A stretch of 64,000 bases of DNA from positions 448,001 through 512,000 of the forward strand of contig CAVSGG010000005.1 of assembly GCA_963727455.1 (NCBI GenBank), in the 5' to 3' direction. Below, one piece after another: positions 46,982 to 64,000 of this stretch (positions are counted from its first letter, which is position 1; every line of letters starts with the position of its first letter). This DNA comes from Candidatus Krumholzibacteriota bacterium. Its GTDB lineage: Bacteria > Krumholzibacteriota > Krumholzibacteriia > JAJRXK01. The notes beneath the pieces are model-generated. The model was not told the origin of the DNA and did not search any database. It worked only from the letters and a program-made list of their open reading frames with translations. The position numbers and the translations under genes were made by a program.

Positions 46982-46983
46982 AC

Positions 46984-48042
46984 GTGCCACTCTCGTTCCT
47001 CAATCGAGTTCTGAAGCGCCCCAGCGATGTGGTGGCCAAGAAGGACGCTTTTCGTCTGCCTGGAGCTCTCTTTGACGGAGTGAGGGTGCTGCTCATCGAT
47101 TCGGACGATTACACCGATCTGCTCTTCGCCATGCCGCTAGTGGAGGAGATACACGACCGCTTTCCCAATTCCCGGGTGGGGCTGGTGAGCGACGAGCGAG
47201 CGCACTATTTGGCGCTTTCCAGCGGAGCATTTCATGAGCTGGTAGTGTATTCCCCCGAGCAGTTAAGTTTGAACTCGAAGGGCTTCGAGAACCTGGCGGA
47301 GGCGGTGCGGGCCGAACCCTGGGACGTGGTGATTCTGCTGGGCCGTCGAGCCCGATCCGGCGCGCGAGGAGTTGGCGCTGGCCAGCGGGGCCCAGTTGCG
47401 GGTGGGTTCTTTGCACCCCAAGAGCTATCCCGCGCATCAACTGTGCGGTGCGCGCCACGAAGGAAGATCACTACCCCTACCGGCGCACTGCGACCTGGGG
47501 CAAGTTCTTTGGATTGCCGCTGGATCATGCTCCGCTGCATTGGCCGCTGCCCGAGTCGAAAGTGCGGCAGATCGCGCAGCTGATTCACTTCAACAAGCCG
47601 CGCAAGGATGAGATCCTCCTCGGAGTCGATCCGGGGCAGGGCAAGGAGGGGACGCTTCTGGGAGCGGAGAACCTGGCATTTCTCGCGAATCATCTGGGGA
47701 AGCGCATGCGATCCAAGACCCTGGTGCTCTCGGCGGACGAGGACATGCAGCGCTTGGCGGAATTCGAAGCGTTGCTCACGGTGGAGAATTGGATCTGCCG
47801 CATCCCACCTTCTGGAGGTCGTGCTTCTTTTGAGCCAGTGTGAGGTCCTGGTGGCCGGGAATACGGACCTCTTCCATTTTGCGGTAGCCTTGGGCGTGCC
47901 CGCTCTCGGTCTCTTTACTACACGCGATGGCAAGCGTTGGCGACCGGACGAAGGGGAGCGAGTGGAGATTCTCGAGCTCGAAGACGGGGGAAATCTCGAA
48001 CTCTCCAACGTGTCGGCTTGTTTCGATCGTCTCCTCGGATGA
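46984..48042 (+). CDS. Divergent glycosyltransferase family 9 protein; about 3 frameshifts
   Basis: Segments in alternating frames: RVLLIDSDDYTDLLFAMP / LASGAQLRVG / LGVDPG / VAGNTDLFHFAVALGVPALGLF. Confidence 0.65.
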
Positions 48043-48096
48043 TCTTGCCCGACGAAACGCCCGTACCAGACTCTCAACGAAAGATCTACGGCGAAG

Positions 48097-50040
48097 ATGC
48101 GTGACTGGCTCCGACTGCTCAGAATGTTGCGCTACTATCGCCGACAGAGCGCCATGCTCGTCGTGAGCATTTTCCTGGCCTCGGTGCTCTCCACCGTGGG
48201 CATCACTTTCATCTCCCCGCTCTTGAGAATTCTCTTCTTGGAGCAGCCGACTCCCCCCGCGGTCGAGATGGTGCGCAATCCCAGCAGGATACATTCGCGC
48301 CGAGAACGGGAGCTGCAAGAGCCATCCGATGCGAGGAGTTCCCAAAATGCGATTCCCGTCCCCGAGAAGCTCTCCGAGGCGCGCCACAACCTGCAGACCT
48401 GGGTTGAGAGGCATCTGTACAAGGGGAACCGCGGGGACATGTTGCTGCGGGTGTCGATTCTTCTCTTCCTGCTCTATCTGGCCAAGAATCTCTTCACCTT
48501 CTCCCAGGGTGCCTTCACTGCGATCCTCGAACAGAAGGTCATCTACGACATTCGGCAGAATCTCTTCACGGCCATTCAGGACATGCCCTTGCGCTACTTC
48601 TCGCAGGAGAGAACGGGGTATCTCATGAGCCGCGTCATCATCGACGTGGACATGATGCGGGGAGCATTGGTGGGGTGCGCCTCGCAGATTCTCTCCAACT
48701 CGATCATGGTCGTTCTCGCACTCATCTTGGTTTTGTGGTGGAGCTGGCAACTCGTCCTTGCGACGCTGGTCATCGTTCCACCGAACATTCTGTTGATGGG
48801 CTATCTCAGCAAGAAGATGCGCAAGGGGAGTCACCGCACCCAGGAGTCGATGGGCGCGCTGGCCACCGTTCTGCAGGAGACGATCGCGGGAATTCGTATC
48901 GTGAAGGCCTTTACCATGGAGATCGCGGAGAGGCTGCGCTACGGCAAAGAAAATCACCGCTACTACAAGGCCTACAGCAAGATGAAAGTGCTGGAAGCGC
49001 TCTCCTCGCCAGTGAGCGAGATTCTGGGAATCACTACCGCGGTGGTGATCCTTGGCTTCGGCGGTCATCTGGTTCTGAGCGGTCGGCTGCGCCCCGATCT
49101 TCTGGTCGCATTCCTGGGCGTCATGCTCTGGGTGATCGGGCCCATCAAGAATCTCATCAAGGTCAACAGCACCCTCCAGCAGAGCCTGGCCGCGGCCCGT
49201 CGCGTGTTTCTCATTCTCGATGCGGAGAAGGAGGAGGCCAACGCGGATGGCATCAAGCGAATCGATGGCCTGAGCGATCGAATCGTCTTCGAAGAGGTTT
49301 CCTTCGACTATCGCGACGACGTGCCGGTGCTCCGCGAGATCTCGCTCAGCATCCCCGTGGGGACGACCCTGGGAATCGTGGGACCTTCCGGAGCGGGCAA
49401 GTCGACTCTGGTAGATCTCATCCCGCGTTTCTACCATCCCACTTCGGGCAAGATCACGCTGGACGGCATCGATCTCGAAGACATCTACCTGCCCACCTTG
49501 CGATCGCTGGTGGGAGTGGTCACGCAGGAAGTCATCCTCTTCAACGACACCATCGCGGCTAACATCTGCTACGGTTCTCCGCAGGCCAGCCGCGAGAAGA
49601 TCATCGAGGCCGCCAAGACCGCGAATGCTCACGAGTTCATCAGTGAGTTTCCCGAGGGCTACGAGACGATCGTGGGGGAGAGAGGTACGCAGCTCTCCGG
49701 CGGGCAACGACAGCGCATCGCGATCGCGCGCGCGATTCTGCGCGATCCGCCAATTCTCATCTTCGACGAGGCCACCAGTTCACTGGATACAGAGAGCGAG
49801 AAGTTGGTCCAGGAGGCGATCGAGAGACTGGTCAAAGGGCGCACCACCATCGTGATCGCGCATCGCCTTTCCACTCTGGTGCGCGCGGATCGCATCGTGG
49901 TGTTGCAGGAGGGACGGATCGTGGAGGAGGGTGTCCACGAGACGCTGCTCGCGCGACAGGGAGTCTACCGGAGGTTGTATGAGCTCCAGGACAACGGGCG
50001 ACCGCCCAAGCCTGGCCCTTCTCCCGAACTGGCTGGGTGA
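48097..50040 (+). CDS. msbA: Lipid A flippase MsbA-type ABC transporter
   Basis: TM domain plus GPSGAGKST, LSGGQRQRIAIARA, DEATSSLD; located in the LPS cluster. Confidence 0.85.
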   Translation: MRDWLRLLRMLRYYRRQSAMLVVSIFLASVLSTVGITFISPLLRILFLEQPTPPAVEMVRNPSRIHSRRERELQEPSDARSSQNAIPVPEKLSEARHNLQTWVERHLYKGNRGDMLLRVSILLFLLYLAKNLFTFSQGAFTAILEQKVIYDIRQNLFTAIQDMPLRYFSQERTGYLMSRVIIDVDMMRGALVGCASQILSNSIMVVLALILVLWWSWQLVLATLVIVPPNILLMGYLSKKMRKGSHRTQESMGALATVLQETIAGIRIVKAFTMEIAERLRYGKENHRYYKAYSKMKVLEALSSPVSEILGITTAVVILGFGGHLVLSGRLRPDLLVAFLGVMLWVIGPIKNLIKVNSTLQQSLAAARRVFLILDAEKEEANADGIKRIDGLSDRIVFEEVSFDYRDDVPVLREISLSIPVGTTLGIVGPSGAGKSTLVDLIPRFYHPTSGKITLDGIDLEDIYLPTLRSLVGVVTQEVILFNDTIAANICYGSPQASREKIIEAAKTANAHEFISEFPEGYETIVGERGTQLSGGQRQRIAIARAILRDPPILIFDEATSSLDTESEKLVQEAIERLVKGRTTIVIAHRLSTLVRADRIVVLQEGRIVEEGVHETLLARQGVYRRLYELQDNGRPPKPGPSPELAG

Positions 50041-51046
50041 TCTCGTCATGGCCGGGCCGGCCCTGCGCTGCCTCAAGGAGGAGGGGCCGGTGGTGGGTGT
50101 GGGTGCTCCCGCCCTGCTGCACTCTCGCGCGGGATTGGGGTTTGATCGACGAGGCGGTGGACTACGACCGCCGCGGGAGCGACCGCGGGATTGCGGGGAC
50201 TGTGGCGCGCGGCCCGGCGCATCCGGGCCCATCGTCCGCATCGCGCCCTCATCTTTCCACCGTCCTTTCGTGCCGCCCTCCTGGCGTTTCTCAGCGGTTG
50301 CCCGCGCCGTCGCGGATTTCCCCGGGACGGGCGTGCTTTCCTGCTGGACGAACCCTATCCCGCGCCGCAAGCCTCCACGTAGCCGGCATCAGGCGAGAGT
50401 CTGGCGCTCCATGGCGAGGGGGGAAGCCCTGGAGAAGAGCGAATCGTATGCGCCGCGAAGCCTGCAGGCGGGACCGGCTGCGCAAGCCACTCTGCGGGAT
50501 CTCAGGCTAGCGGGTGCCCGAGCTGGCCGCGGCGGGACGCTACGCTGTGCTGGCTCCCGCGGTTCGCTATGGACCAGCTAAGCAATGGCCCGCCAAGCTA
50601 CTTCCGTGATTTAGCGCAGAAACTGACCGAAGAGCGGGGGCTGCAAGTGGTGGTTGTGGCGGGGGTGGGTGGGCGAGGAGGCGGAAGTTGCCGCCGCCAC
50701 CAGCCAAGGGCTTCGGTGGTGGAATTGGCCGGGAAAGACCGATCTCTTGGGGCTGAGCGCACTCCTCGCGCAGGCGGCACTCTTCGTGGGCAACGACAGC
50801 GGTCCGGCGCATCTCGCGGCCGCCTTGGGGGCGCCCACGCTGACCATCTTTGGTTCGACCAACCCGAACTGGACGGCGCCACTGGGGGAGCGGGCGCAGA
50901 TCGTGGGGCCCCATCCCGTCCCCTGCACTCCGTGCTACTTGAAACTCTGTCCGATCGGACTTCCTTGCCTGAAGGAACTCACGGTCGACGAGGTTTGGCG
51001 GGAAGTTCTCGAATTGAGCCGGGGAGAGAATGCAAAACGCGTTTGA
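49979..51046 (+). CDS. waaF: LPS heptosyltransferase II (GT9), heavily frameshifted
   Basis: PNWLGDLVMA.PAL, PPSFRAAL, YGPAKQWP, VGNDSGPAHLAAA, CTPC..CP recovered across about 7 frame switches. Confidence 0.7.
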
Positions 51047-51643
51047 GAGTTCGAAGGCAAGCTGGAGGGGAGTGGTATGGCTCGACCGAGACGGGACCTT
51101 GGTCGACGACCCCGGCTACCTTTCCGATCCGGCCGCGCTGAAACTACTGCCGAATGGCCCGCGGGCGATCGCGCGAACTCAACGCGGCCGGACTTTGCGT
51201 GGTTCTCATCACCAATCAGAGTGGAATCGCGCGCGGACTGGTGAGCCGTGAAACGGTCGATCGCATCCACGAGAAGCTGAGCGCGGAATTGGCGAGCGAA
51301 GGCGCCCACTTGGACGGCATCTATCTCTGTCCCCATCTTCCGCGCGAGGAACTGGAGGAAGGGCAGCAGGCCTGTTCGTGCCGGAAGCCGCAGACGGGTC
51401 TCGTCGAACGCGCCATGCGGGAACTGCATCTGGAAGGTCTTTCCTCGATAGTGGTGGGCGACAAGATGAGCGACCTCGAACTTGCGAGGAGAATCCCCAG
51501 TCGCAGTGTACTCGTTCTCACCGGTGAGGGACGCGCGACGCGCGATGCGCTCGAGAATTCACCCGTGAAAGCGGATCATCGTGAGCGAAGATCTAAGGAC
51601 GGCGGCGGAGTGGATCATCCAGACCCTGGGGCTTTCTCGATGA
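51030..51643 (+). CDS. gmhB: D,D-heptose 1,7-bisphosphate phosphatase; 2 frameshifts
   Basis: LDRDGTL, TNQSGIARG, CPH...CSCRKP, VGDKMSD; last segment ends at TGA 51643. Confidence 0.8.
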
Positions 51644-52711
51644 ACGCAGAGCCAGGAACTTCAGTACGAAGAATTTTGGTGACGCGACTGCGCTATCTGG
51701 GCGACGTGGTATCTGAGCACGCCTCTGCTGGGTAGCTTGCGCGAGCTCCTTTCCGAAGGCCCGGATCGAGTATCTGACCTTCGCGAGCTACGCTCCGGTT
51801 CTCGCGCATCATCCCTGGGTGGATCAGGTGCACGCATTGCCTGACGAACGCGGGAGTTCTTGCAACCCTGCGCATGGCGGCGAAGCTCCGACGAGCGAAG
51901 TTCGATTGGTGGCTGGATCTTTTCGGCAATCCGCGCAGTGCGCTGCTGTGCGCATTGGCTCGGCCGAGGAATTCGGTGGGACCGGCGCGGGGAATTCGCT
52001 CGCGCTTCTTTGACTACCGTCGCACGGCACCCCAACATTCGCCCTCTGCGATCGTGCACCACCTCGACAAGGCGTCGCCGCTCGTGGGTCGCGCCGCGTC
52101 CGCGTCGCGTGCACCTGCGAGGTGACACCGGGAGAGCTGGAGGCGATCCGCCGAACAGTTTCCCGATTTGAATGGGCCACAGCCCTTGTTGTTGCATCCG
52201 GGCGCGACCTGGCCCAGCAAGGCCTGGCCCGACTCGAAGTGGTCGGCCCTGATCGATGCGCTCGACGCGCGAGCAGCTGGGGCCGATCTGGATTTTGAGC
52301 GCACCCGGGCAAGAGGCGATGAGCGAGAGGATCGTGCGCCAGGCGCTCGCGAGCTGCCGCGTCGTGCCTCCTCTTCCCTTGCGGCCATTGCTGGCGCTCA
52401 TTGCCAGCGCGCGCGCCTACCTGGGAAACGATGGCGGCGTGCTGCACTGTGCGGTCGGGCTTTCCACGCCCACAGTGGGAATCTTCGGGCCCACCGAGCG
52501 CGAGATCTGGTTCCCCCACGAAGAATTCGGCGGACTTCTACTGGTACAGGAGGAGGTGCCGTGCCGGCCCTGCCATCTCCACGAATGCGATCATCTCTCG
52601 TGCTTGCGCGAACTGCCGGTCACGAGGGTCGTCGCGGCGCTGCAGGAGCTCTTCAAGAGCGCGAGAGCGGCTTCGGTGTCGCGCCGGGAAGGCCTGGTGG
52701 TCCATGGCTGA
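51640..52711 (+). CDS. Glycosyltransferase family 9 (heptosyltransferase-like), multiply frameshifted
   Basis: RILVTRLRYLGDVV, DLFGNPRS, HPGATWPSKAWP, GNDGGVLH, FGPT, CRPC. Confidence 0.7.
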
Positions 52712-53739
52712 GCCTCGCCGTGTCCTGATCCTGAGGCGACGAGCGGTGGGAGACATCGTGGTGTCTCTGCCCATGGTCCATGCTCTGCGCCAGCTCTGGC
52801 CGGGCGCGAAGCTCTCGCTGGTGGTGGATCGCATGGCGGCGGAGCTCGTCGAACACTGCCGGGGCGGCGGACGAGGTACTCGTTTACGATCCTCCCGAGA
52901 GCGGCGCGGCGCGCGTCCTCTACGATTTGAAGTGGCTTGGAAAACTGCGCTGCCGCACAGTACGAAGTCACCATCGACCTTCTGGGCACTCCGCAGAGTG
53001 CGCAGTGGACCGAGACTCATTGGATCTCCTCTGCGAGTCGGAAGGAAGAGGCGCTTTCCGCAGCTGGGCCTACAATTACCTGCTCGAGACGGCGCGAAGG
53101 AGCGACTCGCTTCGCCGGTGAGGAAATGTTGGATTTCGCGCGCGCGCTGGGCGCGAGGACTTCGAATTGGCGGCCGGCTCGCTTGCTGCAGGAAGGCGAT
53201 TCCGGTCCGAGCGACCCGCCGCCTCCGGGAAGCGGAGCTTGGGTGATTCTGCATGCGCCCGCGAATTGGAGCGCGAAAGCCTGGCCCCAACGGCATTGGG
53301 TCGAGCTGGTCCGGCGCCTCGCGGCGGTGGGAATGGAGAGGATCGAGATCTCCTGGGGCCCCGGGGAGGAGGGCTTGGCGGGACGGGATTCTGCGAGAGA
53401 GTGGGGAATTGGCGATGGCGATGCCGCCCACTACACTGCTGGAACTCACGCGCCGCATCTCCCGCTGTGATCTGCTCGTGGCGGTGGATAGCGGACCGGC
53501 GCATATCGCCATGGCGGAAGGGACACCGACTCTGACTCTCTTCGGCAGTACCAATGAACGAGGATGGCACCATTCCTACTCCGATCCATCGTGCGCTGAT
53601 GCACGAGGTGGAGTGCCGGCCGTGCGACCTGACCGTGTGTCCCGTGCCGGGACACCCGTGTCTGGAGCTCCTCGAGCCCGAGCGCGTGTGCACGCAAGCG
53701 CTCGAACTGTTGGCGCTAGTAGCGGAGGGGGAGGCGTGA
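52704..53739 (+). CDS. Glycosyltransferase family 9 (heptosyltransferase-like), multiply frameshifted
   Basis: RVLILRRRAVGDIV, WSAKAWP, WGPGE, VDSGPAHIA, FGST, CRPC..CP. Confidence 0.7.
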
Positions 53740-54581
53740 GTTCCATCGGAGCGATCGTGATCACTTTAAACGAGGAGCGGAACATTCAGCAGTGCCTGAA
53801 GAGCCTCGAGTTTTGTGCGCAGCGTGTGGTCGTGGATTCGTTCAGCGAGGATGACACGGTGCAGCAAGCCTTGCCCCATGCCGACAAGATCTACCGGCGC
53901 CATTTCTCGAGCTGGGGCGAGCAAAAAAATTGGGCTCTGCTGCAACTCGATACCGAATGGGCCCTCATCGTGGATGCGGACGAGCGCGTGGGGCTCTCGC
54001 TCGCGCGGGAGATTCAAGAGGCCACCGAATCGGGCCAGAGTGACGCTTTTTGGATTCGCCGCAGGAATTTTTTCTTCGGACGTCCCATCCGCGGGGCGGG
54101 ATGGGGGCGAGATAGAGTGATGCGGCTCTTGCGCTTGGATGCAGGAACTTACGACCACAGGCAGGTACATGAGGAAATCCAACTCCATCCGGGCAAGCGC
54201 TGTGGGGAACTCGAGCACCGGCTCGATCATTTCTCTTATGAGGACTGGTCCTCCACGTTCGACAGGATGCTGCTCTACAGCAGCCGCGGAGCGGTGGACG
54301 CCCTGGCCTCGGGAAAGAGCGCTTCCATCGGGCGTCTGGCATTCGCACCTAGTCTGCGATTCTGGAAGCAGTACCTCCTGCAGGGAGGATTCCGGGACGG
54401 GGTGCATGGGCTGATTCTCTGTGGCCTCAGCGCATCGCAACTCTTCTTGAAGTTGGCGAAGATGCGCCTGGGAGAAGTTCCCGTCCCCTCGGAGAGCGGT
54501 GTTGCACGAGAGGTGGAGGTCGTGCTGGGACCGAGCCCCCGCGCGCTTGCCCGCAACGATGGTGGAGCCGAGAAGGAGTAG
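53736..54581 (+). CDS. GT2 glycosyltransferase (WaaE/KdtX-like)
   Basis: ITLNEERNI..CL, VVDSFSEDDT, QKNWAL, VDADE, GGFRDGVHGL. Confidence 0.85.
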   Translation: MSSIGAIVITLNEERNIQQCLKSLEFCAQRVVVDSFSEDDTVQQALPHADKIYRRHFSSWGEQKNWALLQLDTEWALIVDADERVGLSLAREIQEATESGQSDAFWIRRRNFFFGRPIRGAGWGRDRVMRLLRLDAGTYDHRQVHEEIQLHPGKRCGELEHRLDHFSYEDWSSTFDRMLLYSSRGAVDALASGKSASIGRLAFAPSLRFWKQYLLQGGFRDGVHGLILCGLSASQLFLKLAKMRLGEVPVPSESGVAREVEVVLGPSPRALARNDGGAEKE

Positions 54582-54582
54582 C

Positions 54583-55365
54583 GTGAGAACCAAACGCGCA
54601 GCAGCCACGAAACTCGCGATGCTACTCTTCGCGTCCGCCTGTCTGGTGGTCGGACTGGTACGGCTATCCTGGGCCGCTCCCGGATTCGGTCCGGGAGAAG
54701 AGGCCGTGTTCAACATCAGCTACGGAGTGATCAGCGCGGGTGAGGGAACTCTCTCCGTGATGCCCTACCTCGACTACGATGGTTCACACTGCTATCACTT
54801 TCGCACGCGCGCGAGGAGCAACCGGTTCTTCAGCGCCATCTTCAGGGTTCGCGATCAGGCTGATTCCTTCATGGACTCGGACTCCCTCGTTACGCGGTAC
54901 TTCAACAAACATCTACGCGAGGGGAGTTTTCGGCGCGACGTGGAGATCCACTTCGATCAGAAACACAACAAGGCCTACTTCCCCGACGGTCGCGTGAATG
55001 ACATTGTCCCTGATACTCAGGACGTGCTCTCTGCCTTCTTCAAAGTGCGCGCAATGAAGCTCGATGTGGGAATGGAGTTCGACGTGCCAACCCACGGCGA
55101 CAAGGAGATGTACCCTTTGAAGGTCAAGGTCCTGCGGCGCGAGACCCTCGACAACGATGCCCTGGGGAAGATCGACTGCATCGTGGTACAACCCTTCCTG
55201 GCTGACGATGGCCTCTTCAAACACGAGGGAGATCTCTTGTTGTGGATGAGCGACGACGAGCGGCACATTCCCGTAAAGATGCGGGCCAATGTTCCGGTCG
55301 GAGCGATCGAGGCCAACCTGATCAGCTACACCCCGCCGACCGTTTTGTCCTCCAGTGGGAACTGA
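54583..55365 (+). CDS. DUF3108 domain exported protein
   Basis: GEE..F.ISYGVISAG, D.LSAFF..R, W.SDDERHIPVK. Confidence 0.8.
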   Translation: MRTKRAAATKLAMLLFASACLVVGLVRLSWAAPGFGPGEEAVFNISYGVISAGEGTLSVMPYLDYDGSHCYHFRTRARSNRFFSAIFRVRDQADSFMDSDSLVTRYFNKHLREGSFRRDVEIHFDQKHNKAYFPDGRVNDIVPDTQDVLSAFFKVRAMKLDVGMEFDVPTHGDKEMYPLKVKVLRRETLDNDALGKIDCIVVQPFLADDGLFKHEGDLLLWMSDDERHIPVKMRANVPVGAIEANLISYTPPTVLSSSGN

Positions 55366-56650
55366 CGTGCGCGAAAGATTCTGTGACGTGGTGATCTTCG
55401 GGGGCGGGTTCGCGGGCTTGTGGATCCTCGATACGCTCGTGCAAGAGGGCTACGACGCTCTTCTGCTGGAATCGCGGGCTCTGGGTACGGGACAGAGCAT
55501 TCAGGCCCAGGGGATCATCCACGGAGGGGGGAAATACGCCCTGCGTGGGGTGGGGGACTTCGCGGCGGTCGAGGCGATTCGTGAGATGCCCGAGCGCTGG
55601 AGGCGAAGCTTGAGTGGACGCGAGCAGCCCGATCTCTCGCGTGCGTTGCTACTTTCCGATGTCTGCCACCTCTTCGTGCCGCGGGCAGGGCTCCTTTCCC
55701 ACCTGAGCGCACACGCCTTCCTGCCCGTAGTGCGCAAGGCGGGTCTCCTACATACCGGACCGGTGAAGCTGGAGTCCAAGGATTGGCCAAGAGCCTTACG
55801 CGGCTCGGCTCGGGCAGTGTACTCGATGGCGGAACCGGTGCTCGCGACGGGATCCGCACTGACCGCCCTCGCCGCCCGGCATCCGCAAAGGCTCCTGCGT
55901 TATGCGCCAGGAGCGTCTCTGGAGAATCTGAAGCTCGATCTGAAGAGAATCGAAGAATATATTGTAGAAATTGAAGATCCGGATGCCCCAGAGCCCCTGC
56001 GCCTGCGTCCCCGCTCCGTGGTCTTCGCGGCCGGGGCAGGCAACGAGGGATTGGTGCAGCGCGCGGAGCGAGGCGAAGCCCCCATGCAAAGGCGGCCGCT
56101 GCGCATGAGCATACTCCGGGGTTCGCTGCCTCCGCTCTACGGGCACATGGTTCGCGGCGGAAAGACGGCGATGACGGTGACCACCCATCCCCTGCAGGCC
56201 GACAGCATGGCTGACAACGCGGGGCAGTGCATCTGGCAGGTGGGAGGCGAGCTTGCCGAGCGTGCCGCTGAGGATGGGGACGGAGCTAGGTTGGAGCGCG
56301 AGTTGCCGCGGCAACTGCGGCGATTCTTTCCCGGAGTGGATTTTTCCCGCGTGCTGATGGCCAGCTATGGGGCGGTGCGTGCGGAAGCCCGCTCGCGAGG
56401 CGAGCGACGTCCCAGCGGGGTGCAGGTCAAAGAGCTGGGCGCGGGGGTGCTGGTCGCCTGGCCGACCAAGATGGCGCTGAGTCCGATTCTCGCGTGGGAG
56501 GTGCAGAGGGAGTTGAGCCGAATGCTTGGCCCACAGGAGCGCAGGGCGGGATTCCCCGCGCCCTCGGCTCCCGCGCTTGGCTGGCCGAGTCCGTCCGTGG
56601 CAAAGTACCCCTGGCAAGAGGAGGGCCTCAGTTGGTGCCCCGTGCGCTAG
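55355..56650 (+). CDS. FAD-dependent oxidoreductase
   Basis: DVVIFGGGFAGLW, GQS...QGIIHGG.KYAL, AGAGN, WPTKMALSP. Confidence 0.85.
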   Translation: MGTDVRERFCDVVIFGGGFAGLWILDTLVQEGYDALLLESRALGTGQSIQAQGIIHGGGKYALRGVGDFAAVEAIREMPERWRRSLSGREQPDLSRALLLSDVCHLFVPRAGLLSHLSAHAFLPVVRKAGLLHTGPVKLESKDWPRALRGSARAVYSMAEPVLATGSALTALAARHPQRLLRYAPGASLENLKLDLKRIEEYIVEIEDPDAPEPLRLRPRSVVFAAGAGNEGLVQRAERGEAPMQRRPLRMSILRGSLPPLYGHMVRGGKTAMTVTTHPLQADSMADNAGQCIWQVGGELAERAAEDGDGARLERELPRQLRRFFPGVDFSRVLMASYGAVRAEARSRGERRPSGVQVKELGAGVLVAWPTKMALSPILAWEVQRELSRMLGPQERRAGFPAPSAPALGWPSPSVAKYPWQEEGLSWCPVR

Positions 56651-57423
56651 GCAGGAGCGGACTTCAGGTTTCCAGGGTCGGTTTGGGTACGGTCAAACTG
56701 GGACGCACCAGTGGGGTCAAATATCCCGTGGCATTCGAGCTGCCAAGCGATGCTGAGTTGGATGAGTTTCTGGACGCAGCTTGGGAGATGGGGGTCCGCC
56801 TTTATGACACGGCGCCGGCCTACGGAAGCAGCGAGGAACGGCTGGCCCCCTTCGTGGCGCGGCATCGCCACGAGATGATCCTCTGCACCAAGTGCGGGGA
56901 GGAATTCAGCGAGGAGGGTTCACGCTACGACTTTTCGGCGAAGTCCTTGCGAGCGTCGCTGGAACGAAGTCTGCGCCGGCTCGGTAGCGAGTGCATCGAC
57001 CTCCTCCTTCTGCATTCCAACGGTGAGGACCTCGAGATTCTGAAGGAAACGGACGCGGTCGAAACTCTGCAGAACCTGAAGTCGGAAGGGAAAGCACGGG
57101 CCATCGGCATCTCCGCCAAAACCGAGGAAGGGGTTCGCGCCGCAGCGGAAACCTTGGACGTCGTCATGGCTCCCTACAGCTTGCACGCCCCTAAACTGGC
57201 TGAGGCCTTGCAGTACGTGCACTCCCGAGGGGTTGGGGTGCTGGGAATCAAGGGGCTCTCGAGCGGTCATCTCGCGCTGACGGGGGAAGATGCCACAAAG
57301 CAGGCCCTCCGTCATGTCTTGTCGCGGAGCTTTCTCGATGCACTGATCCTCGGTACAATCAACCGAGATCATTTGGCGCAAGCGGTGCACTTAGCCCAGG
57401 AAATGGATGAGTCCGGCGGGTGA
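56635..57423 (+). CDS. Aldo/keto reductase
   Basis: GLGTVKLGR..GVKYP, DTAPAYGSSEERL, TKCGE, SLRRL...IDLLLLH. Confidence 0.9.
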   Translation: MPRALGRSGLQVSRVGLGTVKLGRTSGVKYPVAFELPSDAELDEFLDAAWEMGVRLYDTAPAYGSSEERLAPFVARHRHEMILCTKCGEEFSEEGSRYDFSAKSLRASLERSLRRLGSECIDLLLLHSNGEDLEILKETDAVETLQNLKSEGKARAIGISAKTEEGVRAAAETLDVVMAPYSLHAPKLAEALQYVHSRGVGVLGIKGLSSGHLALTGEDATKQALRHVLSRSFLDALILGTINRDHLAQAVHLAQEMDESGG

Positions 57424-58981
57424 GATGAAGCAGGCTAGCACTTACTTTCCCGATACCTCAAGGCAACGAAGCCTCGGTGAAGAACGGCTTCCCTTGGCCC
57501 TCTTCCTCATTTTCTTGCTCGGACTCCTGTTGCGAGTGTACGGGCTGTCGCATCAGAGCCTTTGGATCGACGAGATCATCACCTTGCGCCAGGGCCTCGT
57601 TCCCGGGCACGGGCTCTGGGAACAGTTCCTGGACGACTATCACAATCCACTGCCGATGGTGGTGATCACCACTCTGGCTCGGATGAGCCACGCCGAACAG
57701 CTGCTGCGTTTTCCCGGAGCCCTCTTGGGTTCTCTCAGCGTGCTTTTGATCTTCTTCTTGGGAAGGAGGCTTTCCAGCGCGCGGGTGGGCCTCTTGGCCG
57801 CGCTGCTCTTGGCGGTGAATCCCTTCCATATCTTTCACTCGCAGGAACTCCGTGGCTACGCATGGATGATCTTCTTCGGATTGGCCACTGCCTTGGTTGC
57901 CGTGAACACCCGGGACCGGCTCAGCTGGCCGCGCGCAATCCTGCTCGCGGTTTTGGGGATTGCCACTGCTCTGTGCAATCTCGAGGGACTTTTCTGGATG
58001 GGGAGCCTGGCGCTTGCCTGTACGGCCGCGGGGAAAGTGCACCGTCACGACCTCAGGGCTTGGGGTGTGGCCTTCGGTCTCATGGTGCTCGTCACTTCAC
58101 CCTGGTGGACCGGGATCTCTCGCACCCATCACGAGGAGAGGCTCTTGCCGGGTCAGGAGACCGGGATACCCATGCGCGGACAAACCACCCTGGGAAAGTG
58201 GGCCATTCCCTACGCGGGTTTCGTGCTCGCCATGGGAAATACCATGGGTCCGACTCCACTGGAGATTCACGCGGAGAGTGAGGAGACGATCGAGGCGAAG
58301 CCGAGACTCGAGCGACGGCACTGGCCCGCCGTCGCGGGTGTGGCGGGAATCGTGTTGGTCCTCGGAGTGAGCGGGATCGTCGCGCTGCGCTCGCGCACTT
58401 GGCTTCTTCTTCTGTGGGTTGCCCTTCCAGTGTTGGTGGCGGTGTGGCTGGCCGCGCGCAACGTGAAGCCCCTGAATCCGCGCTACTGCATCGCGGCCTT
58501 GCCGGCGCTCATGCTTCTCCTTGCGGCTGGGATCGATGCCCTGCCGCGCAAGACCGCCTTCATGGTTCTCATCGCGTGGCTCGCCTTCTCGGCCGTGGCC
58601 GACTATCGCTATCACTTCGTGCCCCAGTATCAGAGAGAGGACGTGCGAGGAGCGGTCCGACTGGTGGAGGAGCGCGAGGGCCCCAAAGATTTCATCCTCG
58701 CTCCCACCGTCTACCGCGTCTTTCAGTGGTATTATCGAGGCAGCAATCCGGTCGAACCCTACTGGTGGTCGAAAGTGGATCATTCGCTCGCCGACGTCAC
58801 ACGCCGCTTGGATCAGTTGGACCCCGCGCGCAAGTACGCCTGGTACGTGCGCTGCCGCCCGTGGCACGACGATCCCAACGGCTGGCTGCTAGCCTCTTTC
58901 GAAGAAAACTGGCGTTCTCGGGCCCTATTTCGCCTGCCCGGTGTCGAGGTCTACCTCTTCGAGCGCAAGGAGACTCCCTGA
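57407..58981 (+). CDS. GT-C fold membrane glycosyltransferase (PMT/ArnT-like)
   Basis: LR..GL..QSLWIDE, H.PL, LRFP, P.HI..SQE.R.Y, multiple TM helices. Confidence 0.8.
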   Translation: MSPAGEMKQASTYFPDTSRQRSLGEERLPLALFLIFLLGLLLRVYGLSHQSLWIDEIITLRQGLVPGHGLWEQFLDDYHNPLPMVVITTLARMSHAEQLLRFPGALLGSLSVLLIFFLGRRLSSARVGLLAALLLAVNPFHIFHSQELRGYAWMIFFGLATALVAVNTRDRLSWPRAILLAVLGIATALCNLEGLFWMGSLALACTAAGKVHRHDLRAWGVAFGLMVLVTSPWWTGISRTHHEERLLPGQETGIPMRGQTTLGKWAIPYAGFVLAMGNTMGPTPLEIHAESEETIEAKPRLERRHWPAVAGVAGIVLVLGVSGIVALRSRTWLLLLWVALPVLVAVWLAARNVKPLNPRYCIAALPALMLLLAAGIDALPRKTAFMVLIAWLAFSAVADYRYHFVPQYQREDVRGAVRLVEEREGPKDFILAPTVYRVFQWYYRGSNPVEPYWWSKVDHSLADVTRRLDQLDPARKYAWYVRCRPWHDDPNGWLLASFEENWRSRALFRLPGVEVYLFERKETP

Positions 58982-59625
58982 TGGCGGCCCAGGCCATCGG
59001 CACGGAAGCCGTGAAGTCGCAGCCGTTGTATGAGGCGGCAAAGCGACTCTTCGACATCCTTGCCGCGACTCTGGGCCTCATCTTCTTTCTGCCCCAGATC
59101 CCGTTTCTGGCGCTCTTGGTGAAATTGGAATCTCCGGGTCCCTTTCTGTTCCGGCAAGAGAGGGTGGGGAAAGACGGCAGTCACTTTTTCTGTTACAAGA
59201 TCCGTTCGATGGTGGACAACGCGGAGCTGCTGAAGCAGAGCCTCTCGCATCTGAACGAAGCCGACGGAGCGGCCTTCAAGATCCGTCGTGATCCCCGCAT
59301 CACGCGGGTCGGACAGTTCGTGCGCCGTTCTTCCCTGGACGAGTTTCCGCAGCTTCTGAACGTTTTGCGCGGAGAGATGTCGGTCGTGGGACCCAGGCCA
59401 CAGGTGCCCGAAGAGGTGGCGCAGTACCGCCCTGAACACCGGGAGCGTCTGCTCGTAAAGCCGGGTTTGACCTGTCTCTGGCAGGTCAGTGGCCGCAACG
59501 ACCTGGACTTCGAGGAGTGGATGCGCATGGATCGCGAGTATGTCGCCAAGAGAGGAATGAAAATGGACATGTGGATCATCCTACACACCCTGCCCGCGGT
59601 GATCGCCCGCAAGGGCGCCTACTAA
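58981..59625 (+). CDS. Polyprenyl-phosphate sugar phosphotransferase (bacterial sugar transferase)
   Basis: KRLFDI, FRQERVG, DPRITRVG..VRRSSLDEFPQL.NVLRGEMSVVGPRP. Confidence 0.92.
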   Translation: MAAQAIGTEAVKSQPLYEAAKRLFDILAATLGLIFFLPQIPFLALLVKLESPGPFLFRQERVGKDGSHFFCYKIRSMVDNAELLKQSLSHLNEADGAAFKIRRDPRITRVGQFVRRSSLDEFPQLLNVLRGEMSVVGPRPQVPEEVAQYRPEHRERLLVKPGLTCLWQVSGRNDLDFEEWMRMDREYVAKRGMKMDMWIILHTLPAVIARKGAY

Positions 59626-59673
59626 AGAGCTGCGCGTGCAATCTTCCATCACAACCGTTTCCTCGATCCGCTG

Positions 59674-60591
59674 ATGACTCCCGCCGCCTCCAGCTCGGGC
59701 AGAGTCTCGGTGTGGCTGCGCTTCACGCGGCCGTTCACCCTCTGGCCTCCGGGTCTGGGAATGGTGAGCGGAGGGCTCACCGCCTTGGGCGCCTATCCGC
59801 GCGAGGCCTTCACCTTGACGATTCTGACCAAGCTCGTTCTGGGCGCCCTCATGGCGGCTGTACTCAACGCCGCCAGTAACGGCATCAATCAGATCTATGA
59901 TTTGAAAGTTGACCGGGTGAACAAGCCCGAGAGAGCACTGGTGACCGGAGAGATGAGCGTGCGCGAGGCCAAGTTTCTCTCGGGGGTTCTCTATCTCATC
60001 GCTTTGATCCTGGCGAGTCTGATCAATTTCCAGTGCTTTCTCTTGGCCGCGATCGCGGCAGTTTTGACCTGGGTCTACTCGGCACCGCCCTTGCGCAGCA
60101 AGCGGCACGGATGGTGGGCCAACATCACCATCGCGGTCCCGCGCGGGCTCCTGCTCAAAGTTTGCGGTTGGGCATCGGTAAAGACCTTCATGGCTTTGGA
60201 GCCCTGGTACATCGGTTCGATCTTCTTCCTCTTTCTACTCGGCGCATCCAGCACCAAGGACTTCGCGGACATGGAAGGGGACCGTCTGGGAGGCTGTGAA
60301 ACTTTGCCCCTGCGCTACGGGGTGCGGCGGGCAGCGTGGATGATCGCCCCCTCTTTCGTGCTTCCTTTCATCATGCTTCCTCTGGGCACATCCCTGGGTA
60401 TTTTGACCGGCAACGGCCTGCTGCTCGACCTTCTGGGGCTCACACTGGCGGCCTGGGGATGCTATACCGTGTATCTTCTGGTGAGGCGTCCCGATGAGCT
60501 CGCGACTACCGAGAATCATCCTTCCTGGACCCACATGTATCTGATGATGATGGCGCTGCAAGTTGGCTTCGCCATCTCATACCTCTTTTGA
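59674..60591 (+). CDS. UbiA-family prenyltransferase (DGGGP synthase / homogentisate prenyltransferase-like)
   Basis: RP near N-terminus, GINQIYDLKVDRVNKPER, YSAPPLRSKR, KDFADMEGD. Confidence 0.9.
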   Translation: MTPAASSSGRVSVWLRFTRPFTLWPPGLGMVSGGLTALGAYPREAFTLTILTKLVLGALMAAVLNAASNGINQIYDLKVDRVNKPERALVTGEMSVREAKFLSGVLYLIALILASLINFQCFLLAAIAAVLTWVYSAPPLRSKRHGWWANITIAVPRGLLLKVCGWASVKTFMALEPWYIGSIFFLFLLGASSTKDFADMEGDRLGGCETLPLRYGVRRAAWMIAPSFVLPFIMLPLGTSLGILTGNGLLLDLLGLTLAAWGCYTVYLLVRRPDELATTENHPSWTHMYLMMMALQVGFAISYLF

Positions 60592-60604
60592 GCTGGGAGA
60601 TTTC

Positions 60605-60988
60605 GTGATCGTCGGGATTGGAGTCGACCTCTGCGAAGTGAGCCGTCTACGTGAACTGGAAGAACGCTACGGCGAGCGCTTCTTAGCTAGGGTATTCACG
60701 GACACCGAGCTGAAGCGCTGCTCGGGTCGCCGGCATCACGAATGTCTCGCGGGACGCTTCGCGGCCAAGGAGGCCGCATTGAAGGCGCTGGGAACCGGAC
60801 TCTCGCAGGGGATCGCCTGGCGCGACGTGGAGCTCACGCGCGGGGAATATCAGGCCCCCACCATCGCCTTTCATCGTCGCGCCCGCGAAATCTTCGAAGC
60901 AGTGGGGGCAAGCAGAGTCGTGGTTTCCGTCAGCCACGACGGGGGGATGGCCATGGCCACCGTAATCCTCGAGGGTGAGGAACGATGA
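60605..60988 (+). CDS. acpS: Holo-ACP synthase
   Basis: GIGVDL, RVFT..E, AGRFAAKEA..KALGTG, VSVSHD. Confidence 0.95.
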   Translation: MIVGIGVDLCEVSRLRELEERYGERFLARVFTDTELKRCSGRRHHECLAGRFAAKEAALKALGTGLSQGIAWRDVELTRGEYQAPTIAFHRRAREIFEAVGASRVVVSVSHDGGMAMATVILEGEER

Positions 60989-61656
60989 GCCGGGATCTGA
61001 CGGCTATTTTGGCCTCGGGTGCTTGGTTGCTCGTGGTCCTCGCCGGCGCGGAGTTCGCCCGACGCCGGGGAATGGAACGCGTCGATACCCGCCGCCTGGT
61101 GCACGTTGCCGTGGCGAGCTGGATCGTTCCCACCTTTCTGCTCTATGAAAGTTGGCAGTGGGCTGCCGCGCCCGCCCTGGTCTTCGTGTTCGTCAACGCC
61201 TTCAGCCTGCGTTTTCGCCTGATCAAGAGTGTGGAGATCGACGAGCGCAGTTTGGGAACGGTTTTCTTTCCTCTCAGTGTGGGGGTCCTGACCGTCCTCG
61301 GCTGGCAGGATCCCTGGCGGGCCGTGGCGGCGGCAGGTGTTTTGAGCATGGGGTGGGGCGATGCAGCCGCCTCCTTCGTGGGTCGGCGCTGGGGGCGCCA
61401 CACCTACCATGTGGCGTCGCATCAAAGAAGCCTAGAGGGCTCGCTCGCCATGCTCGTGGTCAGTTGGTTGGCGATTGTGGTAGCGGGTGTCCTTGTCGGC
61501 CCGCAGTTCGGCGGCGGTTGGATCTTGGCCGGATTGCTTGCAGCCTTCGTGGCCACGGTCCTCGAGGGAATCTCACTCGTGGGAACGGACAATCTCCTGG
61601 TTCCGTTTTCGACTTCCGCGGTTTTGGCGCTCTTGCACGGGAGTTTTTGGGGATGA
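60985..61656 (+). CDS. CTP-dependent prenol kinase (phytol/farnesol/dolichol kinase family)
   Basis: TRRLVH, GTVFF, MGWGDAAASFVGRRWG, RSLEGS, GTDNLLVP. Confidence 0.85.
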   Translation: MSRDLTAILASGAWLLVVLAGAEFARRRGMERVDTRRLVHVAVASWIVPTFLLYESWQWAAAPALVFVFVNAFSLRFRLIKSVEIDERSLGTVFFPLSVGVLTVLGWQDPWRAVAAAGVLSMGWGDAAASFVGRRWGRHTYHVASHQRSLEGSLAMLVVSWLAIVVAGVLVGPQFGGGWILAGLLAAFVATVLEGISLVGTDNLLVPFSTSAVLALLHGSFWG

Positions 61657-62706
61657 TGGAAACCTCGAACTTTGCTCCCGTCGACCGATTGTTTCTCACC
61701 GGCGGCACGGGCTATTTGGGGAAGCACCTCGTGCGCGAGTTCCTCGAGGCCGGCTACGAGCTCTTGCTTTTGACCCGCGAAAACTCCGATCGCAGCGGGT
61801 TGCCACTGGACGGCATACGGTACGTGGAGGGCGACCTGCTCGATCCTTCGAGCTACCGGCATGTCCTGGGAGAGGTCGGCGCGGTCGTGCATTCGGCGGG
61901 CCTGGTGAGCAGCTGGGAAAAAGACAAGAGTCTCTTCGATCGAGTAAACGTGGGAGCTCTGGACGGGCTCTTGCACGCCTGCGGAGAGGCCCAGGTCGCC
62001 CGGGTGGTGTACACCTCTTCCTTTTTCGTGCTGGGTCCCGGAGAAGACGAAGCGCCACGCAACGAAGCGCAGCGCATGCCCGTGGCTGGATTCAATGATT
62101 ACGATCGCACGAAAATTCTGGCGGAACGCTGTGTGAAGCAGCACCGGCAACGGGGGCTCGACATCGTCAGCTCTACTCCCGACGGTGATCTATGGCCCTG
62201 GCGAGCGCACCCAGGGCAACCACGTGGCGAAGATCCTGGAGGATCTCCTGAACCAGAACTTGCCGGGCGTGATCGGAAGCGGGGAGCAAGTTTGGAACTA
62301 CGTGTTCGTGGGTGACGCGGCGCGCGGGCATCGCTTGGCCCTCGAAAGAGGCGAAGCCTGCGCGGACTATCTGCTGGGGGGGGAGAACGCCAGCATGTTG
62401 CGTTTCCTCGAGCTGGCGGCAAATTTGGGCGAGGTGGCCGTGCCCACGCGACGCATCCCTTTCGCCCTTCTGATGGCCGTGGCGCGTTTACAGATGCTTC
62501 GAGCCAAACTCACCGGCAAAGCTCCGGAACTGACCAGCGGGATGGTGCGCAGCTACCAGTATGATTGGGCCTTCGACGACGCCAAGGCCCAACGTGAGCT
62601 TGGCTACCAGGGCAGGCCTCTGCTCGAAGGGCTGCGCGAGACCATCGACTGGTTGCGCAGCGGAGGAGCTTCGCCCTTTCACGACGAACGGTGGGAGTTC
62701 GAGTGA
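61653..62706 (+). CDS. Extended SDR, farnesol dehydrogenase (FLDH)-like; one frameshift at about 62169
   Basis: TGGTGYLG, YTSSFFVLG, YDRTK; removing one base at about 62169 gives DIVALLPTVIYGPG; LPGVIGSG, GENAS, KAQRELGY. Confidence 0.82.
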
Positions 62707-63449
62707 GCGTGATGCCCGCTTTCAGCTACGGTTTCGACTTGCACAAGCTCGCACTCCCTTTAGCGGGGAATCTCGTTCTCGCGCTGTATGCGTGGCGTCG
62801 CAGGCTCGTCAGCCGCAGTGGTTTCATCGGAGGAGCGCTCCTGGGCAGCTGGATTTTGGTGCTAGGAGGAGGTGGAGCCTATCTGCTTCTCTGCGCCTTC
62901 TTCGCCCTGGGCACCGCCGCGACGCAGCTGGGGTATCGCAGCAAGGCGGAAAGAGGATTGGCTCAGGAAGAGGGCGGCCGCCGCGGGGTTCGTCACGTAC
63001 TCGCAAACTGCGGTGTCGGCCTGCTCCTGGTCTTGCTTTTTCCCAGTCGTTTCTCCTTCGCCCTGGGAGCGGCCTATGTGGCCGCCTTCGCCACCGCGAC
63101 CGCCGACACCCTGGGCAGCGAAATCGGGCAGCTGTGGGGAAGGCGCGCCTTCGATCCACTACGGATGCGTCCAGCCCCCTCGGGTAGCGAGGGAGCCGTC
63201 TCCTTGGAAGGGACCCTGGCGGGTGGGCTGGGAGCGGGAATTCTGGCTCTTCTAGGCTCAATTCTGCATTTTTACCCCTATTCCGTGCTCTGGGTCCCCC
63301 TTCTCGCGGGAGTTCTCGGAAGCGGCCTGGAGAGCCTCTTGGGCAGCTCAGGTGCGGTTCGAGGCCGTCTGGACAACGAAGTGCTGAACTTCCTCAACAC
63401 TGCGGTGGGGGCGCTCTTGGCCTGGACCGCGATCCAGATCTTGCCCTGA
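62703..63449 (+). CDS. DUF92/TMEM19 membrane protein (VTE6-like prenyl-phosphate kinase family)
   Basis: FF.LG...T..G...K, GRRG..HVLAN, ADTLGSEIG, GSEGAVSLEGT, ESLLG, NEVLNFLNT. Confidence 0.88.
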   Translation: MSVMPAFSYGFDLHKLALPLAGNLVLALYAWRRRLVSRSGFIGGALLGSWILVLGGGGAYLLLCAFFALGTAATQLGYRSKAERGLAQEEGGRRGVRHVLANCGVGLLLVLLFPSRFSFALGAAYVAAFATATADTLGSEIGQLWGRRAFDPLRMRPAPSGSEGAVSLEGTLAGGLGAGILALLGSILHFYPYSVLWVPLLAGVLGSGLESLLGSSGAVRGRLDNEVLNFLNTAVGALLAWTAIQILP

Positions 63450-63471
63450 GGCCTCCCGGCGGGGCACATGC

Positions 63472-63500
63472 TTGAGTTTTCCCCAGTCCAGTGATAGACT
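63472..63500 (+). promoter_or_regulatory. Putative sigma70 promoter with extended -10
   Basis: TTGAGT-N17-TAGACT with TG two bases before the -10. Confidence 0.55.
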
Positions 63501-63506
63501 TAGAAC

Positions 63507-63835
63507 TCGATCGAGAGGGACTCTCCGGGTACCTATGCGCTAGGTCACATCCGGCTGCAATCCTTCTCGATGGATTGCAACTGTGCTACCGCACCAGAAG
63601 GAGTGCCCGTAGAGCTTGGTTAACGCGGTTCCTCATTGCGAGGAACGTTGACATCCGGGGGGGACGTAGCTAGCTACCGATGGCAGGAGTCCGAAGGGAT
63701 GAACTGCGCGGTCTGGTGGAACCCTTGGTGAGAGCTCGAGGTGCACGATCCGAACGATCGTCTACCCGCTGCCATCTCGCTGAACTTGCCTCGTGGAGGC
63801 GAACCCTCGTGCCATAGTCGGTACGAGGGAGGAGC
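63507..63835 (+). ncRNA. Candidate structured RNA or long 5' leader, unclassified
   Basis: At least eight complementary stems in about 330 nt downstream of a promoter; no known family recognised. Confidence 0.35.
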
Positions 63836-63843
63836 GTAGTGTC

Positions 63844-64000
63844 ATGTCCCTCGATTTTGTCTCAGCGCGATCTCTACTCGCAACCCTCTTGACAGGTTTG
63901 CTTTTGTTCGGCCTCGCAGCGTGTGGCTCGAGCGCGTATACCGACGTCAATTTGCACAAGGATCTCGATGCGCGGAGCACAGGTCAAAACAGCCCGGCTG
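63844..64000 (+). CDS. Lipoprotein, N-terminal fragment (runs off window)
   Basis: SD GGAGGAG; MSLDFVSARSLLATLLTGLLLFGLAAC lipobox; frame open to the end. Confidence 0.7.
   Translation, partial: MSLDFVSARSLLATLLTGLLLFGLAACGSSAYTDVNLHKDLDARSTGQNSPA

Follow-up and report, generated by a model that had tools for sequence, protein, structure and literature searches.

A conserved bacterial gene cluster linking putative prenol kinases to an uncharacterised UbiA-type prenyltransferase in Candidatus Krumholzibacteriota

Introduction

In the phytol salvage of plants and cyanobacteria, VTE5 and then VTE6 make phytyl diphosphate for UbiA-family enzymes such as HPT, ChlG or MenA (PMC13415981, a 2026 review; PMC9782597), while in the recycling of farnesal and farnesol by plants, which runs through FCLY, FLDH and FOLK, FLDH (At4g33360) reduces farnesal to farnesol ahead of FOLK (PMC13415981; PMC9782597). 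The VTE6 family, DUF92 or COG1836, was listed under 'phytol-phosphate metabolism' in 2011 in a comparative genomics study of plants and prokaryotes (PMC3223725), and archaeal COG1836 proteins fused to a Sec59-like, dolichol-kinase-like domain were described in 2015 (Makarova et al., 2015, PMC5898192). The present analysis concerns a cluster of five genes in a 64,000-nucleotide stretch of DNA (hereafter the window) from a Candidatus Krumholzibacteriota bacterium. The cluster encodes a UbiA-superfamily prenyltransferase, the holo-ACP synthase AcpS, a protein resembling phytol and dolichol kinases, an SDR (short-chain dehydrogenase/reductase) of the extended type and a DUF92 protein. With moderate confidence, it is read as a module that activates an isoprenoid alcohol and is coupled to a prenyltransferase of its own.

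The three families of phytol salvage, namely VTE5-like (by a marginal profile match), VTE6-like and UbiA-like proteins, occur here in the same logical order. The locus differs from phytol salvage in that its genes form clusters or fusions, its hosts carry the labels of non-photosynthetic lineages, the UbiA protein falls outside the known acceptor classes, an SDR belongs to the set and a radical S-adenosylmethionine (radical SAM) protein co-occurs with it. As in plant farnesol recycling, an FLDH-like extended SDR adjoins a VTE5/FOLK-like kinase, although the likeness to plant FLDH comes from automatic names and an Atlas lead, the best curated model being HpnA below its cut-off. The archaeal COG0170-COG1836 fusions (arCOG02245 carrying a Sec59-like domain at the N terminus, for example Mbar_A3310; PMC5898192) have the two-domain architecture found in 34 of the 80 bacterial loci examined below, whereas in the window the two genes are separate with the SDR between them, and the archaeal context is uppS, not UbiA. 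No paper on a bacterial operon of SDR, kinase, DUF92 and UbiA was found among open-access papers and preprints. The initial annotation of this DNA, made from its letters alone, had known of no description of the four-enzyme cluster; this calls for qualification, since the pairing and the fusion of the kinases had been noted in the 2011 and 2015 reports.

Conservation and linkage of the module

The conservation of the cluster is far beyond chance, because gene order is kept in all seven family relatives that have DUF92 and because the pairing of UbiA with DUF92 recurs in 49 of 80 loci across phyla; linkage and fusion, like the family assignments and the phyletic co-occurrence reported below, are direct observations on these genomes. 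A scan of 185,579 species genomes with UbiA returned 218 relatives, the best 80 loci of which (48-89% identity) were retained and searched for the kinase-like family with a profile hidden Markov model and for DUF92 by iterated searching, genes in high-GC loci being called with a GC3-weighted caller. Seven of these loci belong to Krumholzibacteriota, six of them being the same contigs as in the class sample described below, and the others carry the labels Acidobacteriota (Vicinamibacteria, Thermoanaerobaculia), Gemmatimonadales, Eisenbacteria, Wallbacteria, Glassbacteria, Cloacimonadota, Planctomycetota or 'uncultured'. Both the kinase-like protein and DUF92 adjoin UbiA in 45 of the 80 loci, within a single open frame in 34 (two of which, L038 and L057, are partial or odd) and as separate genes in 11; the four loci with DUF92 but without the kinase-like protein include three at a contig start. 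The commonest order outside Krumholzibacteriota is SDR, kinase-like protein, DUF92 and UbiA, which in Acidobacteriota and Gemmatimonadales is the order of the reactions proposed below. All four families were found together in Krumholzibacteriota, Acidobacteriota, Gemmatimonadales and Glassbacteria, so that the four-family cluster, for which the initial annotation had suggested a neighbourhood search, turned out to be a conserved cross-phylum module.

Within the family, the full order from DUF3108 through DUF92 is kept in those seven relatives, bar the SDR in two. In a sample of 41 genomes of the class, an orthologue of UbiA is present in nine and DUF92 in eight, all belonging to one family (f1), and the sole genome in which the two disagree has its UbiA gene 291 bases from a contig end. 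G003, a member of the same genus, has neither UbiA nor DUF92, nor the radical SAM protein or the GT-C glycosyltransferase; it was considered as a clean deletion of the module and rejected as such, there being no DNA synteny with window positions 46000-64000.

Separation of UbiA from the other genes is also informative. Five genomes with a lone UbiA were tested (two Eisenbacteria, one Wallbacteria, one Planctomycetota and one Acidobacteria), and all five carry DUF92 elsewhere: fused to the kinase-like protein in two, adjoining it in one, and in the order kinase-like protein, SDR and DUF92 in Eisenbacteria L108, the DUF92 locus of Eisenbacteria L107 being cut off upstream. Since one Eisenbacteria locus keeps kinase, SDR and DUF92 together and apart from UbiA, the SDR travels with the kinases and not with UbiA, which favours a role for it on the prenol side. 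Among 121 genomes of Acidobacteriota, 43 have both UbiA and DUF92, one UbiA only, 17 DUF92 only and 60 neither (42, 1, 17 and 60 when the unpublished genome G071, which has UbiA and DUF92 and no radical SAM protein, is left out), the genomes being related, so that these counts and those for the radical SAM protein overstate independence.

In 11 of the 80 loci (Eisenbacteria and others; e.g., L022:6897-7652, L037:6956-7708 and L043:1236-2054, the last lying between UbiA and the radical SAM gene), UbiA is followed by a polytopic membrane protein of some 250 aa that matches neither Pfam nor NCBIfam; a tblastn search of the window's genome gave no homologue.

Structure of the locus

The source metagenome-assembled genome comprises 3.46 Mb in 18 contigs (88.85% complete, 6.68% contaminated), the window being C5:448001-512000, and its closest relatives in public records carry the label Candidatus Krumholzibacteriota. 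The five open reading frames lie on the + strand between 59674 and 63449 (Table 1). Two of their junctions are ATGA overlaps, and the remaining ones overlap or sit a few bases apart. The tight five-gene cluster of the initial annotation is therefore borne out in its coordinates and, by Pfam and NCBIfam, in its families, and every UbiA and SDR motif that it quoted is found in the translations.

The frame break that the same annotation had suspected near 62169 is real and lies at 62171, where the window has one base more than the relatives G001 and G002 in a DNA alignment. Logan contigs from the wetland-metagenome runs X1 and X2 match pieces of the window except for the omission of one letter at 62171, but these runs may include the window's own source sample and thus serve as a check on the assembly, not as an independent population; in runs X3 and X4, stretches that no contig covers are uninformative. 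The G001 orthologue of the SDR gives a stop-free translation of 349 residues as read, and without base 62171 the SDR of the window reads as one frame in the same way. The extra base is probably an assembly error or a minor variant. Because the relatives and the contigs of X1 and X2 lack it, the SDR gene is probably intact, and it is treated here as presumably functional in the population. A scan for promoters and terminators over 53000-64000 yielded no promoter-like site and nine terminator-like sites against 9.5 expected, and is uninformative.

Table 1. Features of the cluster and its upstream neighbours in the window
Feature	Position	Strand	Basis
Upstream neighbours: DUF3108, FAD oxidoreductase, aldo/keto reductase, GT-C glycosyltransferase, polyprenyl-phosphate sugar-phosphate transferase	54499..59625	+	Pfam, NCBIfam
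UbiA-superfamily prenyltransferase, 305 aa	59674..60591	+	Pfam PF01040
Holo-ACP synthase AcpS	60563..60988	+	PF01648 / TIGR00516
Phytol/dolichol-kinase-like membrane protein, 223 aa, CTP_transf_1 superfamily	60985..61656	+	PF01148
Extended SDR, FLDH/HpnA-like, two frames in the assembly (61653 to ~62170, then to 62706)	61653..62706	+	Pfam Epimerase
Single extra base breaking the SDR frame	62171	+	Alignment to relatives and Logan contigs
DUF92/COG1836 membrane protein, 252 aa, VTE6 family	62691..63449	+	PF01940

The SDR and the two putative kinases

The SDR of the window matches Pfam Epimerase with 88.5 in its N half and 24.6 in its C half (cut-off 20.9), and carries a Rossmann/NAD motif together with the catalytic Ser and YxxxK (GGTGYLG at 17, YTSSFF at 120 and YDRTK at 150 of the N half), as well as LPGVIGSG and GGENAS. 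Against the NCBIfam models, its intact G001 orthologue scores 212.4 bits with HpnA, 136.5 with SdmB and 108.8 with OleD versus 60.9 with GalE and 53 with dTDP-glucose dehydratase, the HpnA cut-off (TIGR03466, 367.65) not being reached. The best PDB match of the SDR is 3wj7, a putative oxidoreductase (8.5e-41), and among 120 listed homologues the automatic names of JGI include farnesol dehydrogenase 32 times and nucleoside-diphosphate-sugar epimerase three times. An Atlas look-up, useful as a lead only, placed a plant-dominated cluster and one named 'dihydroflavonol-4-reductase/farnesol dehydrogenase' among the nearest. A place for the SDR among lipid-acting extended SDRs, and not among nucleotide-sugar enzymes, is supported by these scores; the initial annotation had called it FLDH-like, and no grouping with sugar epimerases that would speak against this was found.

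The kinase-like protein contains the motif GWGDAAASFVGRRWG...SLEGS. Among 49 of its homologues, JGI automatic names give 'phytol kinase' 11 times and 'dolichol kinase' twice. A Nostoc protein with which it shares 37% identity is named phosphatidate cytidylyltransferase at NCBI and assigned to the diacylglycerol/polyprenol kinase family in UniRef. Such phytol kinases and cyanobacterial polyprenol-kinase-family proteins are the closest relatives that bear a name, and the likeness to phytol kinases proposed from the sequence finds support in both comparisons, although the profile match is marginal. The kinase-like protein also aligns with both halves of a fused acidobacterial protein, as would be expected from the homology reported between DUF92 and cytidylyltransferases (PMC5898192). 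The DUF92 protein is a member of its family (PF01940, 153.5 bits; cut-off 27.5). By family resemblance, the former is presumed to be a CTP-dependent prenol kinase and the latter a prenyl-phosphate kinase. PDB sequence searches with the two proteins gave nothing below E 0.3.

AcpS scores 64.6 bits with the ACPS Pfam model (cut-off 25) and 95.2 with TIGR00516 (cut-off 59.8). Its listed TTG start overlaps the UbiA gene and the family alignments start at residue 15-16, so that the true start probably lies about 40 nt later. AcpS is the sole PF01648 match in the window's genome, and hence its only phosphopantetheinyl transferase, and the 73 loci from outside Krumholzibacteriota yielded no match to it. 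It is therefore a housekeeping gene unrelated to the module and a hitchhiker in the cluster, which was one of two options left by the initial annotation.

The UbiA prenyltransferase

The UbiA protein is a member of its superfamily (PF01040, 139.2 bits; cut-off 34.2), with the motifs NQIYD (72-76), VDRVNKP (79-85) and KDFADMEGD (195-203), the Asp-rich motifs N72-x3-D76-x3-D80 and D196..D199..D203, and the loop Y135SAPPLRSK143. It lies far under every NCBIfam equivalog cut-off, its scores (bits/cut-off) being 126.5/269 for PRK12884, 117.7/313 for ChlG and 99.5/226 for HPT, ChlG and HPT thus ranking second and third, 99/212 for BchG, 71.6/436 for a second chlorophyll-synthase model, and 97.7/296 and 85/353 for the models of the archaeal DGGGP synthase (DGGGPS). 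In a PDB sequence search the best match is the DGGGPS of Methanocaldococcus jannaschii (MjDGGGPS, 6m31; 2e-21), chlorophyll synthase being found at 4e-17. An AF2 model (pLDDT 94) has an all-helical membrane fold with Foldseek TM values of 0.70-0.77 to 6m31, 4tq3 and 4od4, the top match again being 6m31 (TM 0.70/0.76, 25% identity). The resemblance of its motifs to HPT/HST and DGGGPS, pointed out from the letters alone, thus reappears in profile and PDB searches as a likeness to DGGGPS, ChlG and HPT.

Its individual features are mixed, with a loop (YSAPPLRSK) of the chlorophyll-synthase type and a motif, KDFADMEGD, of the DGGGPS type. Counterparts exist for N62, D66, D70, Y125 and K130 of MjDGGGPS and for its KDFxDMEGD motif, the catalytic residues being those listed in a review (PMC9385802). 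The clade has, however, an invariant C-terminal block of its own (N281-H282...W285...M288-Y289...Q296), which distinguishes it from MjDGGGPS. By these sequence comparisons it belongs to an uncharacterised subfamily and fits no characterised one. According to the same review, UbiA enzymes group by acceptor; since the present protein forms a separate clade, its acceptor is suggested to differ from those of the characterised subfamilies.

The genome has three other UbiA paralogues, namely an MqnP-like protein, heme O synthase and a decaprenyl-phosphate phosphoribosyltransferase (PRTase). The gene of the last (C5:170178-170891, L100; 262.3 bits, cut-off 234) lies directly after that of a WcaJ-like sugar-phosphate transferase and suggests a polyprenyl-phospho-pentose route in this Krumholzibacteriota genome.

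Proposed pathway

In the pathway proposed here, the extended SDR would interconvert a short-chain (about C15-C20) prenal and prenol, the phytol-kinase-like protein would form the prenyl phosphate, presumably with CTP, DUF92 would form the prenyl diphosphate, and the orphan UbiA would pass the prenyl group on to an acceptor, which would yield a lipid of the membrane or envelope. We infer all substrates, which way the SDR works, the choice of nucleotide, and the origin of the prenol, taken up from outside or recycled from lipid of the cell itself. From prenal to prenyl diphosphate this is the sequence of the initial annotation, whose order finds support in context and family resemblance but whose named products do not.

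Chain length is addressed by two loci, Gemmatimonadales L063 and Glassbacteria L042, in both of which the operon extends to a large protein of the phosphodiesterase family, a polyprenyl synthase and a further protein of the phosphodiesterase family. The L063 synthase is of the short-chain type (FPPsyn 245.9 bits, CrtE 239.8 bits), which points to a C15-C20 donor. With such a synthase in the operon, the module is not solely a scavenging device, and the uptake of external prenols at first proposed is not supported. In the window's genome, a polyprenyl synthase and the protein following it lie 55 kb downstream on contig C5; this second protein is weakly like the second phosphodiesterase of those operons (E 3.5e-9) and has no Pfam match. 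The large phosphodiesterase (PDE1) was considered as a member of the module and rejected, since it occurs in 23 of the 41 class genomes, including ones without UbiA, and is not co-distributed.

Besides the relatedness of the genomes counted above, several observations weigh against the reading of the locus as a prenol activation module with its own prenyltransferase. The stretch was found in none of the RNA runs searched. The kinase-like protein reaches PF01148 (CTP_transf_1) marginally, with 24.2 bits for a cut-off of 24, and matches no NCBIfam model, while DUF92 scores 146.7 with TIGR00297, under the cut-off of 205.85. No kinase lies near UbiA in 31 of the 80 loci, an SDR match was seen in just 33, and the two family relatives whose cluster lacks the SDR both belong to one genus (g4). 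The genome holds three polyprenyl synthases and makes prenyl diphosphates de novo, so that a kinase route is not obviously needed. Finally, the locus lies amid glycan genes, with the sugar-phosphate transferase and GT-C upstream and Wza and Wzz downstream, and lptD is found upstream in 23 of the 80 loci, all Acidobacteriota, both of which would fit a carrier-lipid role as well.

A co-distributed variant radical SAM protein

Clustering of the neighbours revealed a radical SAM protein near UbiA in eight of the 80 loci: directly after UbiA in Wallbacteria (three loci) and Cloacimonadota, one gene beyond it in an 'uncultured' locus, and closing the operon in Gemmatimonadales (two) and Glassbacteria. 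Its NCBIfam family is NF045502, 'variant_rSAM' (scores of 233 and 200.6 bits for a cut-off of 125), and it has the cysteine motif C131-x10-C142-x2-C145. The family is small: 112 representative clusters out of 1.84 billion fall within E 1e-30. No close relative with a solved structure was found, nor any paper on the family among open-access papers and preprints. A fold search returned just generic radical SAM cores (LipA, HydG, BioB and MqnE, TM about 0.4) and gave no specific function. In Wallbacteria and Cloacimonadota, UbiA and the radical SAM gene are followed by a Peptidase_M28 gene (L095:8178-9536, L083:3539-4861).

The distribution of this protein follows that of UbiA. In the class sample it is present in exactly the nine of 41 genomes having UbiA, and it occurs in four of five tested UbiA-bearing genomes of other phyla. 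Among the 121 Acidobacteriota, 35 genomes have both, nine UbiA only, two the radical SAM protein only and 75 neither (35, 8, 2 and 75 without G071), i.e., it is present in 35 of 44 genomes with UbiA and in two of 77 without. Independent support for the link is its physical adjacency to UbiA in several phyla. The co-distributed variant radical SAM protein, encoded elsewhere in the window's genome, probably acts in the same pathway, and its link to this UbiA is a new finding.

The window's genome has two copies, 97% alike (C8:464420-465688, L110, and C9:193888-195156, L114), with similar neighbours, namely a gene for a protein of about 580 aa and a GT2 glycosyltransferase; given the contamination of the assembly, they may represent two strains binned together and not a true duplication. 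Beside one of the copies lies a divergent aldehyde dehydrogenase gene (L110:3662-5176, C8), which may be a coincidence.

Genomic context and alternative roles

The module sits within a large exopolysaccharide region. Beyond DUF92, from window position 63793 to 64000 and onward (L113, C5:511794 on), follow genes of polysaccharide export (Poly_export/Wza and Wzz) and those of an AAA ATPase, a SPOR protein and a member of the phosphodiesterase family. Upstream, the genes of the FAD oxidoreductase, a DAO-family protein with a weak N-terminal likeness to GlpA, and of the aldo/keto reductase overlap (55355-57423) and accompany the cluster in the same seven family relatives.

This setting raises the possibility, here considered unlikely, that the kinases serve the adjacent polysaccharide machinery by reactivating a long-chain polyprenol of the undecaprenol or dolichol kind, that UbiA makes a polyprenyl-phosphate-linked sugar like the mycobacterial PRTase, and that the SDR, with the FAD oxidoreductase and the aldo/keto reductase, remodels the sugar for GT-C. 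The mycobacterial decaprenyl-phosphoarabinose pathway (a UbiA-type PRTase, DprE1/E2 and GT-C arabinosyltransferases) indeed resembles the window in having a UbiA fold near oxidoreductases and a GT-C protein. A glycan role would also be in keeping with the glycan genes on both sides of the cluster and with lptD in Acidobacteriota, with the glycosyltransferases that surround the polyprenyl synthase/phosphodiesterase-like pair on C5, and with the cis-prenyltransferase gene uppS, which is the one conserved neighbour of archaeal DUF92 (PMC5898192). The true PRTase orthologue is, however, the different gene at C5:170178, next to another sugar-phosphate transferase, for which reason the cluster UbiA was rejected as a DPPR synthase. 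It gives no match to PRTase chains in the PDB sequence search at E up to 0.01, the PRTase model is not among the best 25 of its 29 NCBIfam matches, and its fold match to the PRTase 8j8j is weak (E 2e-5, 15% identity, rank 15 in Foldseek). The upstream glycan genes, GT-C and the oxidoreductases among them, have no match in the 73 loci outside Krumholzibacteriota and are lineage-specific context, not part of the conserved module; as the glycan neighbours differ between phyla, they hint at the site where the product is used and not at members of the pathway. The short-chain synthase of the Gemmatimonadales operon likewise speaks against a long-chain carrier.

It is rather improbable that UbiA, as a DGGGP-synthase-like enzyme, etherifies a glycerol-phosphate-based acceptor to form an archaeal-type or mixed isoprenoid ether lipid, as the initial annotation had offered among its end products. 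MjDGGGPS is the best match in both sequence and fold and shares the catalytic motifs, and three of 120 listed homologues are automatically named DGGGP-forming enzyme at JGI; at 25% identity, however, the two enzymes differ in the C-terminal block, the Y135 loop is of the chlorophyll-synthase type and the DGGGPS cut-offs are not approached. The partners of an archaeal route are also lacking. GGGP synthase (PF01884) was found neither in ten genomes of the family, nine of them at least 90% complete, nor in the window's genome, the control being positive in 7 of 14 genomes, and CarS was not found in the window's genome at its 88.85% completeness. The archaeal-lipid route was therefore rejected, although another first ether-forming enzyme is possible. 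Bacterial homologues of DGGGPS are assumed to do other jobs (Villanueva et al., PMC7852524). For annotation, the present result indicates that bacterial 'DGGGP synthase-like' genes need not imply archaeal lipids.

Least probable is the prenylation by UbiA of homogentisate or another aromatic head to a prenylquinone or chromanol, or the esterification of a tetrapyrrole as by chlorophyll synthase, to which the ranks of ChlG and HPT, the YSAPPLRSK loop and the fact that plant salvage feeds exactly these enzymes (PMC13415981) would lend some colour, but in the window's genome, at 88.85% completeness, HPPD stays at 28.9 bits for a cut-off of 277 and tocopherol cyclase was not found (in a search without positive control), so that the tocopherol route was rejected, the menaquinone prenyltransferase is the separate MqnP-like paralogue, UbiA scores far below the cut-offs, and the hosts are non-phototrophic lineages, by label alone. 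With partners lacking or the job done by another gene, the quinone, chromanol, archaeal-ether and arabinan-carrier readings are all weakened, and neither the quinone or chromanol nor the ether lipid initially named as end product is supported.

Implications

Returning to the prenol activation module joined to its own prenyltransferase, we tentatively propose, and with some reserve, that the SDR, both kinases, the orphan UbiA and the variant radical SAM protein (C-x10-C-x2-C) together constitute a bacterial pathway, not described so far, that leads to a modified isoprenoid lipid of the envelope and in which prenol released by the cell itself would be re-activated in the manner of chloroplast phytol recycling, instead of drawing on de novo diphosphates only. 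Its distribution would cover about one third of the Acidobacteriota sampled and at least five further phyla, mostly uncultured ones. As a compact operon whose kinases are fused in some lineages, the module would be an easy system for defining both kinase activities. The linked UbiA and radical SAM protein point to an isoprenoid lipid not yet identified in abundant lineages of soil and sediment, and such a lipid bears on membrane evolution and on the reading of environmental lipid biomarkers.

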